Of a stretch of 51,296 nucleotides of DNA, positions 45,004-50,651 are shown in pieces (the first letter of the stretch is position 1; each line of letters begins with the position of its first letter). The position numbers and the translations under genes were made by a program. The DNA is from Promethearchaeia archaeon (GTDB lineage: Archaea; Asgardarchaeota; Lokiarchaeia; Sigyniarchaeales; SOKP01). The DNA lies in the NCBI GenBank assembly GCA_029856125.1, contig JAHQWJ010000025.1, forward strand, positions 1 to 51,296, in the 5' to 3' direction. The notes below the pieces were generated by a model. The model searched no databases. It was given only the letters and a program-made list of their open reading frames with translations, and had not been told where the DNA came from.

Positions 45004-45743
45004 TAGAAGTGGAGAATTTAAATTTTGAGTACAATTCAAGTTTTTCTCTTAATGATTTATCTTTAACCATACAAGAAAATTCAATCTATGCTTTAACAGG
45101 GAATAACGGGTCAGGTAAAACTACCTTTCTTAGGTTATTAGTTGGTTTACTGAAACCTAAATCTGGAACTATTAAAATTTTTGACGAAATCTTGACAAGA
45201 GATAAACAACAGTTATGGAGACTTAGACAAAAAATCGGATTTTTATTTCAAAACCCAGACGATCAATTATTTGCCCCAACGATAGGAGAGGATGTGGGAT
45301 TTGGAGCAAGGAATCTAGGACTTGAAGAGCCTGAAGTGAACAAGAGAGTTGAATGGGCGCTCGAGGCAGTTAAATTATTGCAATACGCTAAAAGTTCTCC
45401 CTACGATTTATCTTGGGGGCAAAAAAAAAGAGCAGCTTTAGCAGGGTTATTAGTAATGAAGCCGAAACTGTTAATATTAGACGAACCTTTCGCAAATCTT
45501 GATTTTAAATCAATATATAACCACTTACAAATTTTTAAAACACTTAAAGAAGAACAAAAAATGACAATATTGTTTACTACTCACAATCTTTTCTTTATAG
45601 AACATTGGGCAGATAAAATGCTTGTATTAAACGATGGAAAGGCTATATTTGAAGGCATTCCTAAGGATGGATTAAATCATCCCAAAATCAAGCAATTATT
45701 GGGTTCGTATGATGACCTCTTAACTCTTATTAACCAAAAGTAA
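44994..45743 (+). CDS. cbiO: ECF transporter ATPase; probable ATT start, GTG at 45009
   Basis: (I)SLIEVENL N-terminus; GNNGSGKT, FQNPDDQLF, LSWGQKKR and LDEP motifs. Confidence 0.9.
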   Translation: MSLIEVENLNFEYNSSFSLNDLSLTIQENSIYALTGNNGSGKTTFLRLLVGLLKPKSGTIKIFDEILTRDKQQLWRLRQKIGFLFQNPDDQLFAPTIGEDVGFGARNLGLEEPEVNKRVEWALEAVKLLQYAKSSPYDLSWGQKKRAALAGLLVMKPKLLILDEPFANLDFKSIYNHLQIFKTLKEEQKMTILFTTHNLFFIEHWADKMLVLNDGKAIFEGIPKDGLNHPKIKQLLGSYDDLLTLINQK

Positions 45744-45799
45744 TTTAATTTTCACTAAAATAGAATAAATTTTTTAACTTGTTTTTTATATTATTACTT

Positions 45800-46229
45800 G
45801 GGAAAACGATGACGGAACATTAGCATATTCGAGGACGCTTATGATAACCCGTGATTAAGCGTGCAAAATAATGCTTACATCCTAAGTTTATTAATCAACA
45901 ACTTACTGCATCAAAAATGGGCTCTTAATCAAGCTATGGTATTACCTTGTGATGAGATTGGAGTCAGACCCAGCATGCAGACATGGTTATGCCCCAAAAA
46001 GGCATAGAAATTACCGCCTAGCACGAGAGAACTTATTTGATGTTTATGGTATGACCATAAGATGATAAATGTGTGTTAGTGTTCTCAGGCAACAATATAT
46101 GCTGATTGAGGCGACCAATAAGCCGCTTGCTTCTTTCACGAAGAGATAGTACTCCTCGCTCTCGGTTAGACCGTTAAATACGCGACTTGCGTTTCCTAGG
46201 ATTACTTAAACCATGTCGTTACTTTTTTT
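45800..46229 (+). ncRNA. Putative ~420-nt structured non-coding RNA of unknown family
   Basis: No ORF; GC above the intergenic background; many nested helices; TATA-like TTTTTAA at about 45771 and a U7 tract at 46223-46229. Confidence 0.65.
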
Positions 46230-46436
46230 AGCAACCCAGCCGATTTCACAAAGTAAATCCGTGTTTTTAAATCCCACGAATTTTTTTTTTGACGGGAAAC
46301 TGTTTATATCTCGAAATAATTAAGTATCCAACCAAGTGTCACTTTTATAAGAAATATTATGCGTGAGTAATCTTTTTTAAGGGAGAAGTTCAATTATAGC
46401 TTATAAGACAAGAATGAATAATTGAGAATTTAAAAG

Positions 46437-49400
46437 ATGAAAACAGAATTCAAGAAAGTATGTAAAATTAATAAACTTATTACTTTAAAACTTGAGAAGA
46501 ATGGATGGATAGAAATATTTATAGAAGATGAATTAATCGCAGGGATGACAAAAAATCCAGAAAATTTACCTCCAGAAGTTTATTTTGAAAAATTGTGTAG
46601 AAAAATGAAAAATTGGGTAAATACCAATTATGATTGTACTTTAATAGATGTGAGCATTGCTTTTCGTTTATTAGAAAAGTTAATTGAGGTTGGAGATAGG
46701 ACTGTTAAAATTGCAATGAAAAGAGAGTATTTAAAAAAAATTAAAAGTATCGTTCATGAAACTGATATCAAGTACATTGATGAGCTAAATTATCTATTAG
46801 ACGCACAATTTGTGAAGTATTTTGATAGTGGAGAATTAAATAAGGTTCTTAGCAATTTTAACCTGCCACTTTTCAAAATAATATTGAGAAAATTAATTCA
46901 CTTTGAAGATTATGGCGAAAAGAGGCATTCAATATGGGCTCTGAATAAAATTGCGAATTTTACTCCCATTGTTATTGATGATTATATATCTGAGAATTTT
47001 TTAGATTCAAAATATGATATTTTATTCTGTTTGGTCAAAGAAGGAATTCTCAATAAAATTTCAATTGATAATTTATTTATATTATTTGAAAGACCTAATT
47101 CAAAAATAAAGGAATTTTTATTACTCTGTCTTAAAAATGACGATAAAAATGTTAGAAGCAATGCTGCTGAAATTTTATGCAAAGGTAACCAAATAATAAT
47201 TAATTACATTAAAAATGAAGTCTTAAAAACGGGGGATCATGAAAAAATCATATTTCTTCAAAATTTACTGAAAAGTGGTTATTTTGTTTTTATAAATGAT
47301 GATGATCTTAGACATTTTTTAGAAGATCTAAATCAAAATTTACTTATTGAATTAGTTAATATATCCATAGAGAATTTGATACAACTTTTAGAGAGTAAAA
47401 ATTACGAATCTAGGATAATTAAAGAAAATCTTATACTTCCTTCATTAAAAAGGATAGTAAGTAATAGTGAAGATAGTATAAAGAAAGTATTTGAGGAAAA
47501 TATTGTCAATTTAGTTAATAAAGAGAAATTCTTAATGAATTTTTATTTATTTAGTGGGGGTTATTTAGCTTATCTGAGAGAATCGGAGAAATTAATTTAT
47601 TTTAGTGCAATTTCATCTAAAATTTTAGATAAGTTCGAAAAAGAATCAAATAAAATTGATAGATACGAAAGAGAAATTTTATTAAAAGGGTTTTCAAACT
47701 TAGGAATAGATTCAATTGGTTTACTGTTCAAATTGTTAAGCACTAAGATTATGCGGGAATGGAAAAAAAGTCTATCAGATATTCTCATCAAAATTGGAGA
47801 TGAAAATAGAGAATTAATTAGAAAAGAACTTTTTAATCTCTTTTTATCCTTAGAGTATGAAGAATTGTCAGATATCCTATATTTCGGAAAATTAATAGAC
47901 TATCTTGAAAAAGATGATTTAATTAAATTATCCGATAACATCCAAGCAAAGTTAATGCAAAAAATTAAACTTGCTTTAGAAGATGATTACGAGAGTACAG
48001 CTATAAATTTATTAATTAAAATGGAAGAGTATGGAATTGAGACATTGCTAGAATGGTTAAAATATGCTAATACCGAATATTTTGATAGTTTTATTCTAGA
48101 ATTCTTAAAATCTTTGAAAAAAAATGTTCTTATCCCTCTTCTCCAAGAAGCATTAATAGATATTATCAGAAGTAAGGATTTTAAAGGATTACTTAATCTC
48201 ATCCATCATGATCTGATAAAAATTTTATCTAAAGAAGAAATTTTAAGTATTTTTTGGACAGAGGATAAATTAATCACATCACTAGTTGACCTATTAGAAA
48301 AAAAATCTATAAACTCTTTTACTTTTTCATACCCTTTAAGAATAATATGTGAGGTTATAGGTCCCGAGGCAGAAAACCTTCTATTACGCGTCTTCATTCA
48401 TGAAGTAATTAATGATGAATGTGAATATTCTGATGAACGTGATTTCGGTCCGAGAATTTTTAATCTAATGAAAAAAGAAATATTTGAATTTGAAAGAGGA
48501 AAAGACACGATAATTATCGGAAATAAAAAAATGTCCTCGGCTATACAAGGATCTGTCTTACTTTCTACAATAAATGTAATGAATGATACGGAAAAAGAAA
48601 AAATCATTCAAAACAGAGAAATACTCCGACAAATATTTATATTGTATAATAATTCCGGCTTTCCCAATAAGACTCCTTTTGACTTTTTCAATAACGCTCA
48701 ACTTAGGCAGATACCTTTAAGGTGTTTAGCTTTTTCCTTTTTTATGGAGGAAGATATATTAGGTATCTCGAGTCTTTTATCTATATGGGGTTTCTCGTTT
48801 AATAAACTAATAGATACTCTAGAATTGGAGGATTGGAGAGAAATAATTGAAAAACCGAATTTTAATTTTATTGAACTGATAACGAAAGCAATGTTGCTTG
48901 AGTTAGATAAAAGTTATTCTCCTAATAATTTTACAAACAAATGGCTTGTTGAATATATGGGACAAGTCCGAGGAAAACTGAAGGAACAAATAAAGGTTAA
49001 AATAATAGACAGTTTTCAACAGAAAAATGTTCATGCTATTTTAGGTATTTTTAGTATGGATTATCATTATTATATTTCGGAAGAAGAAATTATTATTTTG
49101 ATTGAAGGTTCAATTGAAGCCTGTATAAAAGCTCAAAAGATTAAAAAAAATGACACATTGGATTTTTATATTCAGAGAATACATGATATACCAAAAATCG
49201 GCGAAATTGAACTCCAAAAGTTATCTGAACGAGAAAAAGTTATTTTTCAAGAATTAAAAAATAGTCTACTTGTAAGCATTAACGACATAAAAATTGAGAA
49301 TGGAAAAATTATTGGTTTGGAATTAAAAAGTAGGGCTTTAAATGAATTACCAAAATACATTATGCAACTTACTTACTTAGAGGAATTGAATTTAAGTCAA

Positions 49401-50438
49401 AATCGACTGAATTCTTTACCAATGTCTCTTGGTAACATTCACTCACTTCGAGCAATCGACTTATCACGAAACTTTTTAGTAAATTTACCAGAATCAATTG
49501 GGAATCTTAATTCACTCAATTCTCTAGATTTAGGACATAATAAAATAACAGCACTTCCAGAATCTATAGGGAATATAACTTCACTTGAAGAATTGAGTTT
49601 GAAAGGAAATAAAATTACAAACATATTGGAACTCATAAATAACCTTCCTAGATCACTCCGGATACTTGATTTATCAGATAATAATTTAACAAGCTTACCA
49701 GAAACTATAAATAGACTTCAGTCTCTCCTATCATTAGATTTATCAAGCAACAATTTAGCATCCATACCAGAATCAATTGGCGATCTCACTTTACTTCATT
49801 CTCTAGATTTATCTTATAACAAGATAAATATACTCCCACCGTCTATTGGAGATTTAACATCACTCAAAAAGATTAATATGGGGTGGAATAGAATCAAAAA
49901 TCTTCCTAATACTATTGGAAATCTCTTTAATCTAAAAAGATTACAAATAAATAACAATCAAATCTCCTCCCTTCCAGAATCCATTGGAAACCTTATATCC
50001 TTAGAGGAAATACTTTTAAGTAATAATAAGTTATCTTTTCTCCCAAAGTCCATAGGAAATCTTCCCCTATTAAAATATCTAAGTTTACAGATCAATAAAT
50101 TATCGAATCTCCCCAAGACAATTTGTAATATCAAATCTCTTAAAAGTTTATTTTTACGGTGCAATGGTCTAACAAAACTTCCGGAATTTTTAGGGAATCT
50201 ACATTCATTGGAAAGACTAGGATTAGATACTAATCAATTGAAAACTCTTCCAGAATCCATTGGGCATCTTTCTTCACTAAAAGATTTAACTTTATTTCAT
50301 AATCCATTAAAATTCCTTCCAGAATCCATTGAAAATCTAACTTCTCTTGAAATTAGTTTAGACTACACTCAATCATCGACTCTTAAAGATATAATCAAAA
50401 AATTAGAGAAAAGGGGAATAAGAGTTTTGAGTTTATAA
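46437..50438 (+). CDS. Large LRR protein: ITLKLE N-terminal domain, helical (HEAT/ARM-like) middle and about 15 C-terminal LRRs
   Basis: Repeated LxxLxLxxNxLxxLPESIGNL units from about 49320. Confidence 0.9.
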   Translation: MKTEFKKVCKINKLITLKLEKNGWIEIFIEDELIAGMTKNPENLPPEVYFEKLCRKMKNWVNTNYDCTLIDVSIAFRLLEKLIEVGDRTVKIAMKREYLKKIKSIVHETDIKYIDELNYLLDAQFVKYFDSGELNKVLSNFNLPLFKIILRKLIHFEDYGEKRHSIWALNKIANFTPIVIDDYISENFLDSKYDILFCLVKEGILNKISIDNLFILFERPNSKIKEFLLLCLKNDDKNVRSNAAEILCKGNQIIINYIKNEVLKTGDHEKIIFLQNLLKSGYFVFINDDDLRHFLEDLNQNLLIELVNISIENLIQLLESKNYESRIIKENLILPSLKRIVSNSEDSIKKVFEENIVNLVNKEKFLMNFYLFSGGYLAYLRESEKLIYFSAISSKILDKFEKESNKIDRYEREILLKGFSNLGIDSIGLLFKLLSTKIMREWKKSLSDILIKIGDENRELIRKELFNLFLSLEYEELSDILYFGKLIDYLEKDDLIKLSDNIQAKLMQKIKLALEDDYESTAINLLIKMEEYGIETLLEWLKYANTEYFDSFILEFLKSLKKNVLIPLLQEALIDIIRSKDFKGLLNLIHHDLIKILSKEEILSIFWTEDKLITSLVDLLEKKSINSFTFSYPLRIICEVIGPEAENLLLRVFIHEVINDECEYSDERDFGPRIFNLMKKEIFEFERGKDTIIIGNKKMSSAIQGSVLLSTINVMNDTEKEKIIQNREILRQIFILYNNSGFPNKTPFDFFNNAQLRQIPLRCLAFSFFMEEDILGISSLLSIWGFSFNKLIDTLELEDWREIIEKPNFNFIELITKAMLLELDKSYSPNNFTNKWLVEYMGQVRGKLKEQIKVKIIDSFQQKNVHAILGIFSMDYHYYISEEEIIILIEGSIEACIKAQKIKKNDTLDFYIQRIHDIPKIGEIELQKLSEREKVIFQELKNSLLVSINDIKIENGKIIGLELKSRALNELPKYIMQLTYLEELNLSQNRLNSLPMSLGNIHSLRAIDLSRNFLVNLPESIGNLNSLNSLDLGHNKITALPESIGNITSLEELSLKGNKITNILELINNLPRSLRILDLSDNNLTSLPETINRLQSLLSLDLSSNNLASIPESIGDLTLLHSLDLSYNKINILPPSIGDLTSLKKINMGWNRIKNLPNTIGNLFNLKRLQINNNQISSLPESIGNLISLEEILLSNNKLSFLPKSIGNLPLLKYLSLQINKLSNLPKTICNIKSLKSLFLRCNGLTKLPEFLGNLHSLERLGLDTNQLKTLPESIGHLSSLKDLTLFHNPLKFLPESIENLTSLEISLDYTQSSTLKDIIKKLEKRGIRVLSL

Positions 50439-50490
50439 TAGGATAGTATTCTTGTTGATAATTATAAAATTAAAGATTAAACCTAAAAAA

Positions 50491-50571
50491 ATGAAAGAAT
50501 TCAAGGTTAAAGAGTACATCACGCTGAAGTTGGAAAGGGAAGTAATAAAAATTATATATTTTGAATTTTAG
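50491..50571 (+). pseudogene. N-terminal relic of an ITLKLE-family gene
   Basis: MKEFKVKEYITLKLEREVIKIIYFEF* resembles KINKLITLKLEKNGWIEIFI in the upstream LRR protein; TTATAAA box about 25 nt upstream. Confidence 0.6.
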
Positions 50572-50651
50572 ATATGATTTAATATTTAAGAGATTAAATA
50601 AGAAACATAGGCAGAACCTTGCTGATATTTTTTTAAAAAGAGGATAGCGAT

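Follow-up and report, generated by a model that had tools for sequence, protein, structure and literature searches.

Among archaeal box H/ACA guide RNAs, the RNAs known as HgcG, Pab40, Pf7 or Afu4 (RF00064; Thermococcales, Archaeoglobus) are the closest described systems for the RNA analyzed here. Motifs 1 and 3 of Pab40 have been shown to act at positions 2588 (helix 89) and 2016 (helix-69 loop) of P. abyssi, and the 2678 site, the equivalent of U2586, has been predicted for motif 2 of Afu4 and Pf7 by the rules of the same study (PMC2377435). Positions 2588 and 2678 become 2496 and 2586 when an offset of 92, which we inferred from that publication, is subtracted. In Haloferax volcanii, a single pocket of sR-h45 makes the pseudouridines 1940 and 1942 in the helix-69 loop, the equivalents of 1915 and 1917, and does so with extra unpaired bases (PMC7075261). 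Rules for the spacing and the upper stems of archaeal H/ACA motifs have been published (PMC4652768, PMC7075261).

Eukaryotic RNAs are also relevant for the comparison. The scaRNAs, such as U85, are composite C/D-H/ACA RNAs. We take positions 2865, 2923 and 2258/2260 of yeast 25S rRNA to be the equivalents of E. coli 2496, 2554 and 1915/1917, respectively. At these yeast positions, pseudouridines are guided by snR46, snR10 and snR191 (PMC5699541).

Here we describe an RNA gene in the window, i.e. the whole stretch of 51,296 nucleotides of Asgard archaeal DNA that was analyzed. With high confidence, we regard positions 45800-46105 as the gene of an archaeal box H/ACA guide RNA with three motifs, which belongs, as a distant member, to the Pab40/Pf7/Afu4 group (Rfam HgcG) and is predicted to direct pseudouridylation of 23S rRNA. 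In the literature that we searched, we found neither a description of an Asgard H/ACA guide RNA nor a pseudouridine map of Asgard rRNA.

Boundaries and genomic neighborhood of the RNA

A sequence-only reading of this DNA had proposed a highly structured RNA of ~420 nt with one nested fold that ends at a U7 tract. A stand-alone, conserved and unannotated structured RNA is indeed present, and it lies on the plus strand as proposed, but the conserved RNA covers 45800-46105 (~305 nt) and not ~420 nt. The features of the locus are:

45009 to 45743, plus strand: cbiO ECF ATPase gene (Pfam), upstream neighbor
45770 to 45777, plus strand: TATA-like tract, putative promoter, -30 to -23 from the conserved GGG
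45800 to 46105, plus strand: predicted three-motif box H/ACA guide RNA gene (HgcG/Pab40-like), based on blastn in same-genus genomes and covariance model matches
45800 to 45802, plus strand: 5' GGG that pairs with 45993-45995, joining hairpins 1 and 2 as one domain
46101 to 46250, minus strand: decayed fragment of a 425-aa TFIIB-zinc-ribbon-like gene (tblastn), outside the RNA
46106 to 50620, no strand assigned: ~4.5-kb insertion with the gene fragment and a 1333-aa LRR gene, absent in the close relative L002
50652 to 51131: roadblock/MglB-like gene (weak NCBIfam MglB match), usual downstream neighbor of the RNA

In blastn searches, the 5' part of the proposed structure was recovered in 31 of 36 same-genus genomes, with alignments that end at or just before 46107, and the bases beyond ~46107 match other places in a DNA search of relatives, not the homologs of the RNA. 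These bases belong to the remnant of a protein gene, as a tblastn search aligned positions 46101-46250 on the minus strand to the 425-aa gene with 64% identity over 42 aa (E 3e-15) and an in-frame stop, and a second piece of the decayed gene follows after a deletion. The aligned edge of the fragment overlaps the last few bases of the RNA, and in every relative examined the fragment is absent beside the RNA. The U7 tract (46223-46229), formerly taken as the end of the RNA, lies inside the fragment and is the reverse complement of Lys codons. As the roadblock-like gene directly follows the RNA in L002, the gene fragment and the giant LRR gene together form a ~4.5-kb insertion. A right end of an IS200/IS605 element or a 5S-like RNA at 46105-46225 had also been considered, and both are ruled out by the protein-gene match.

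An intact 425-aa paralog of the decayed gene is encoded on contig C152 (G000:C152:36936-38213). The protein has an N-terminal TFIIB-like zinc ribbon with weak TFIIB similarity and is patchily distributed in the genus by DNA search; Pfam and NCBIfam matches of L029, as homolog of the 425-aa protein, to TFIIB are weak. Another observation concerns the insertion itself, which directly adjoins the guide RNA on its 3' side and has removed the usual U-rich tail.

On the 5' side, the cbiO gene adjoins the RNA in 20 of the 28 genus loci. The proposed GGG start at 45800 is conserved, and the TATA-like box that had been noticed before it corresponds to the tract at 45770-45777; a T-tract is kept upstream of most genus homologs. 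The pairing of the GGG with 45993-45995 is found in 92% of the cells of the genus alignment and is extended in the sister family.

What speaks for one nested RNA of ~420 nt and of an undescribed class, ending at the U7 tract? Its helices can be drawn, as the eleven helices that had been given with both arms are present in the sequence (for the twelfth, 45988-46006, the alignment served as check), and with the usual U-rich tail after 46105 lost through the insertion, a strain-specific read-through to 46229 is conceivable. However, six of the twelve helices depend on the gene fragment: the 3' arms of the five long-range helices (46214-20, 46197-202, 46141-45, 46125-29 and 46115-19) and the hairpin at 46163-73 are all inside it. 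In the ensemble, the long-range helices reach probabilities of 0.00-0.05, and the minimum free energy of the 430-nt fold (z = -0.93) was matched by 17 of 100 shuffles, whereby single-sequence folding energy is uninformative here: the true RNA, too, has a z of about -1. A decayed protein gene accounts for the 3' quarter of the proposed structure. We therefore give the ~420-nt RNA practically no chance of being real and continue with the guide RNA at 45800-46105.

Anatomy and covariation

In the genus alignment of 28 homologs, the RNA forms three hairpins, each with a lower stem, a near-invariant internal loop, and an upper stem that contains a K-loop or K-turn. Additional helices close the hairpins beneath the ACA boxes:

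45807 to 45889, plus strand: basal C/D-type kink-turn under ACA 1, closing hairpin 1 (box-C-like 45807-45816, box-D-like 45880-45885)
45823 to 45879, plus strand: H/ACA motif 1, predicted target 23S U2496; lower stem 45823-27/45870-74, guides 45829-34 and 45863-66, upper stem 45835-41/45856-62, K-loop, ACA 45877-79
45892 to 45989, plus strand: helix 45892-96/45985-89 closing hairpin 2 under ACA 2, 100% paired in the genus
45906 to 45983, plus strand: H/ACA motif 2, predicted targets U2586 (ancestral) and/or U2554; lower stem 45906-11/45975-80, 5' guide 45916-22, 3' guide 45965-74, K-turn, ACA 45981-83
46002 to 46102, plus strand: helix 46002-06/46098-102 closing hairpin 3 under ACA 3, 99% paired
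46016 to 46094, plus strand: H/ACA motif 3, predicted target helix-69 loop (U1915, possibly U1917); lower stem 46016-20/46086-90 and 46022-24/46079-81, guides 46025-29 and 46075-78, K-turn, ACA 46092-94

An ANA box 3' of the lower stem is present in all three motifs of all 28 genus homologs, and so are the K-turn/K-loop signatures, with a non-canonical second pair in the motif-2 turn. Such an arrangement is typical of archaeal H/ACA motifs (PMC4652768, PMC7075261). The genus alignment contains 19 compensatory pairs (0 of 500 shuffles), with 95% pairing as compared to 30-41% in slid controls. For the phylum set, 26 sequences were aligned by fitting them to the model, and compensatory changes occur in 44 of 47 pairs. 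Five of the six pairs of the motif-2 lower stem show compensatory changes. Among the helices of the sequence-only reading, covariation supports 45822-26/45871-75 and 45835-41/45856-62, and for the hairpin at 46044-60 it backs the apical stem 46047-49/46055-57, whereas the helices 45971/46098, 45988/46006 and 46027/46081 join strands that have other partners in the conserved structure.

The closing additions are themselves conserved. Both sides of the basal K-turn are kept in the genus (C side 28/28, D side 26/28), and its stem covaries phylum-wide. The helix closing hairpin 2 changes in a compensatory way in the sister family and in the phylum, and the one closing hairpin 3 does so in the sister family, while both of its strands have jointly disappeared in 4 of the 28 genus homologs. 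Most likely, the extra closing helices and the basal K-turn are a stabilizing scaffold with a predicted fourth L7Ae site. At 45884 within this K-turn, the RNA described here and L005 (2 of 28) have an A in place of the conserved G, and the fourth L7Ae site may be weakened in these copies.

It could be argued that such a K-turn makes the RNA a scaRNA-like hybrid of C/D and H/ACA type, which would use its basal box C/D motif to guide 2'-O-methylation as well, e.g. at U2506 beside the motif-1 target. The conserved turn around hairpin 1 is indeed built from box-C-like and box-D-like sequences, in the genus the five bases 5' of the D-like box are a complement of 23S 2502-2506, and Pab21 of P. abyssi combines a C/D and an H/ACA motif in one RNA (PMC2377435). 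However, there is no free guide of 10-12 nt before the D-like box, as this space is filled by the ACA box, by the lower stem, and by bases for which covariation with the 5' strand is seen phylum-wide, and no C'/D' pair with guides was found. Moreover, the closing additions are not maintained everywhere: family f12 has a plain helix in the place of the K-turn, and family f10 lacks the additions altogether. A 3'-terminal D-like box exists in only 17 of the 28 genus homologs and 2 of 20 wider homologs. Taken together, a methylation-guiding hybrid is very unlikely, and a pure H/ACA guide remains our interpretation. A reading as U3-like or long C/D RNA was dropped with the unconserved 3' D-like box and the lack of a free guide.

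Relationship to HgcG and distribution

The window copy itself has no match to HgcG (RF00064), and the Rfam search of the window gave chance matches only, in line with the sequence-only reading. That reading had also noticed the lack of RNase P and SRP RNA motifs, which holds: neither family matches here, and the matches are on other contigs, C137 and C126. The SRP RNA match (L032, G000:C126:190148-190383) is partial and under the Rfam cut-off (59.9 vs 96.5 bits), which suggests a divergent SRP RNA.

The RNA is nevertheless no member of an undescribed class, as had been proposed, but of the H/ACA pseudouridylation guides of the Pab40/Pf7/Afu4 (HgcG) kind, and this is seen through its homologs. 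Eight of 20 distant homologs match RF00064 with E-values of 1e-11 to 0.015, the best of them over the full length (1e-11 to 5e-10) and with the motifs in the same order, and L100, a homolog from the same family as the host, matches at E 2e-4. Motifs 1 and 3 align to motifs 1 and 3 of HgcG. The match to the known family thus stays below the Rfam cut-off: the gathering score is 77 bits, and even the best homolog scores 50.5 bits. By this transitive sequence relationship, membership in HgcG is very probable.

The covariance model detects a single copy in 119 of 131 genomes of the host's family. A broader model finds the RNA in at least 62 of 151 genomes and 14 of 27 families of the phylum, and within the order in at least 36 of 41 genomes; these counts are lower bounds, as four of five re-tested blanks matched under looser filters. 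The single-contig 4.4-Mb genome G044 from the same order gave no match even with the broad model and loose filters, and as two genomes of its genus match, the RNA is either lost or highly diverged there. G055, also from the host's order, carries the gene; it matches the cultured Ca. Lokiarchaeum ossiferum B35 and has three 23S copies. A pattern scan of genome contigs resulted in chance matches only, and seven archaeal loci from the scan have no model match.

Some variants deviate from the usual form. About 500 bases from a full gene, L093 (G029:C17:42379-42489, minus strand) is a second, partial hairpin 3 with altered guides, either a local duplication or a decaying copy. L141 (G252:C13:54351-54536) is a two-motif version without hairpin 2, and L135, L140 and L145 of family f10 are compact, without closing helices, and closest to the HgcG of Rfam.

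Predicted rRNA targets

The 23S rRNA of the host genome is unassembled, and 23S copies from the same genus were used as targets. The E. coli positions given here are those that we presume from landmarks. When all uridines of 16S and 23S rRNA were scanned, the best match of each pocket was the same site in all 28 homologs, and matches in 16S rRNA were weak. Shuffled rRNA was equally good in 2, 14 and 18 of 400 trials for motifs 1, 2 and 3, respectively, in a test in which the pocket borders had been chosen after seeing the alignment and in which the registers at U2496, U2554 and U1917 were scored, not those at U2586 or U1915.

Motif 1 would pair at U2496 with 6+4 bp, two unpaired bases (UN), 14 nt to the ACA box, and an upper stem of ten layers, and this predicted geometry is fully canonical. 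The spacings of motif 1 and of the U2586 register (14 nt each) and of motif 3 (15-17 nt) conform to the published rules, as does the upper stem of motif 1 (PMC4652768, PMC7075261). In the pockets of motifs 2 and 3, 3-5 bases of the substrate stay unpaired, whereas the textbook number is 2.

Motif 2 of the window copy fits two sites, U2586 with 8+4 bp and 14 nt to the ACA box, and U2554 with 3+4 bp and 7 bp and 16 nt to the ACA box. U2586 is the site that is fitted in most other families, and in f10 the 5' guide follows a C-to-U change. In contrast, several copies of the sister family are without the U2586 guide and fit U2554 only. This pattern suggests an apparent lineage-specific gain of U2554, and dual use is possible in the host's family.

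In case of motif 3, the distance to the ACA box is 15 nt for U1917 or 17 nt for U1915. The U2554 and U1915 registers are 16-18 nt away from the ACA box, farther than the 14-15 nt that are active in P. abyssi. The 3' guide of motif 3, GUUA, is conserved phylum-wide and faces the bases before U1915. In the genome G179, helix 69 is altered on both sides, and both guides of motif 3 are altered to match. This guide-target covariation is the strongest single sign of target identity. A register at U1917 fits in this genus but neither in f10 nor in copies with a covarying lower stem, and U1915 is therefore preferred. As the motif-3 pocket leaves the loop tip open, U1917 may be modified besides U1915. 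An alternative target at position 2622 of L042 was rejected, as it occurs in only one of six same-genus 23S rRNAs.

Three observations on the 23S rRNAs may be added. One sequence, L048 (G014:C263), is a bacterial-type 23S rRNA in an archaeal bin, probably a contamination, and was left out as target. Position 2555 in the A-loop, usually U, is A in the host family and partly in the sister family (L042-L047, L150, L151). The segment from the 2496 site to the A-loop varies in length by ~30 bases among same-genus 23S copies.

Proposed function

Protein binding and catalysis are predicted steps in the mechanism that we propose. L7Ae would bind the K-turn or K-loop of each hairpin, and Cbf5 with Nop10 and Gar1 would bind each lower stem and ACA box. 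Each pocket would then pair with the pre-23S rRNA and thereby offer a uridine for isomerization to pseudouridine. Motif 1 would address U2496 in helix 89, and motif 3 would address U1915 in the helix-69 loop, where U1917 may follow as in case of Haloferax sR-h45. The register presumed for motif 2 is U2586 in most of the phylum, with an additional fit to U2554 (A-loop) in the host family and its sister family, and some sister lineages would use U2554 only. In the host genome, Cbf5 scores 433 bits and thereby exceeds the equivalog cut-off, Nop10 and two genes of the L7Ae family are also encoded, and the Gar1 match is weak (26.7 bits, just under the cut-off of 29.3). RNA-library contigs from four studies cover only 45803-46106 and not the flanking genes; these contigs come from relatives with mostly 90-99% identity, give no information on strand, ends or level, and are a hint of expression at most.

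Could the RNA serve the folding of the rRNA instead, like U3, by holding helices 69, 89 and 92/93 in 50S assembly without any modification? It would contact three or four functional sites in domains IV-V simultaneously, its pockets are in part atypical, and yeast snR10 is a precedent for such a second role (PMC5699541). However, ACA boxes, spacing and uridine-centered pockets are features of catalytic guides, the weakness of the 16S matches argues against it, the sole U3 match has an E-value of 0.52 in one homolog, and the family that is matched is HgcG. A pure chaperone function is not needed to explain the RNA, and we consider it extremely unlikely.

Comparison with known guide RNAs

As the predicted targets coincide with Pab40-type sites, the RNA is predicted to work like Pab40. 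The HgcG RNAs likewise have three H/ACA motifs in the same order, the guides of motif 1 are near-identical and address the helix-89 site, the 3' guide of motif 3 is directed to the helix-69 loop, and the 3' guide of motif 2 fits the U2586 equivalent. In contrast to HgcG, the Asgard RNA is AU-rich and stays under the Rfam cut-off. Relative to the RF00064 structure, it adds closing helices around the ACA boxes, a fourth K-turn at hairpin 1, and a pairing of the 5' end behind hairpin 2, which the f10 versions lack as well. Two further differences concern the guides: the pairing of the motif-3 5' guide is shifted further along, with the loop tip left open, and motif 2 fits U2554 in the host's order.

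The pocket of sR-h45 has an open geometry that is similar to that of Asgard motif 3, but sR-h45 has two hairpins, another second target, and four unpaired substrate bases as compared to five. The yeast RNAs snR46, snR10 and snR191 are separate two-hairpin RNAs without K-turns that use Nhp2 instead of L7Ae, and the shared targets do not show descent. With Pab21 and the scaRNAs, the Asgard RNA has in common a C/D-type K-turn that encloses an H/ACA hairpin; unlike composite C/D-H/ACA RNAs, it has no methylation guide, and the motif is dispensable in several Asgard families. One may speculate that the closing helices and the C/D-type K-turn are functional and not just stabilizing, either by recruiting a second set of proteins or by holding the three hairpins together in a single particle, which would clamp helices 69, 89 and 92/93 while the 50S subunit assembles. 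Under this idea, which we regard as unlikely, composite or chaperoning snoRNAs of eukaryotes would have a forerunner in the Asgard RNA, and the shift of motif 2 to U2554 would be a parallel to yeast snR10.

The mechanism class is known and the family probably known, whereas the Asgard branch, the closed-base architecture and the motif-2 shift appear to be undescribed in the literature searched. The Asgard guide retains the archaeal K-turn/L7Ae design, a guide family so far described from Euryarchaeota now spans a second phylum, and an apparent target change from U2586 to U2554 is recorded in progress.
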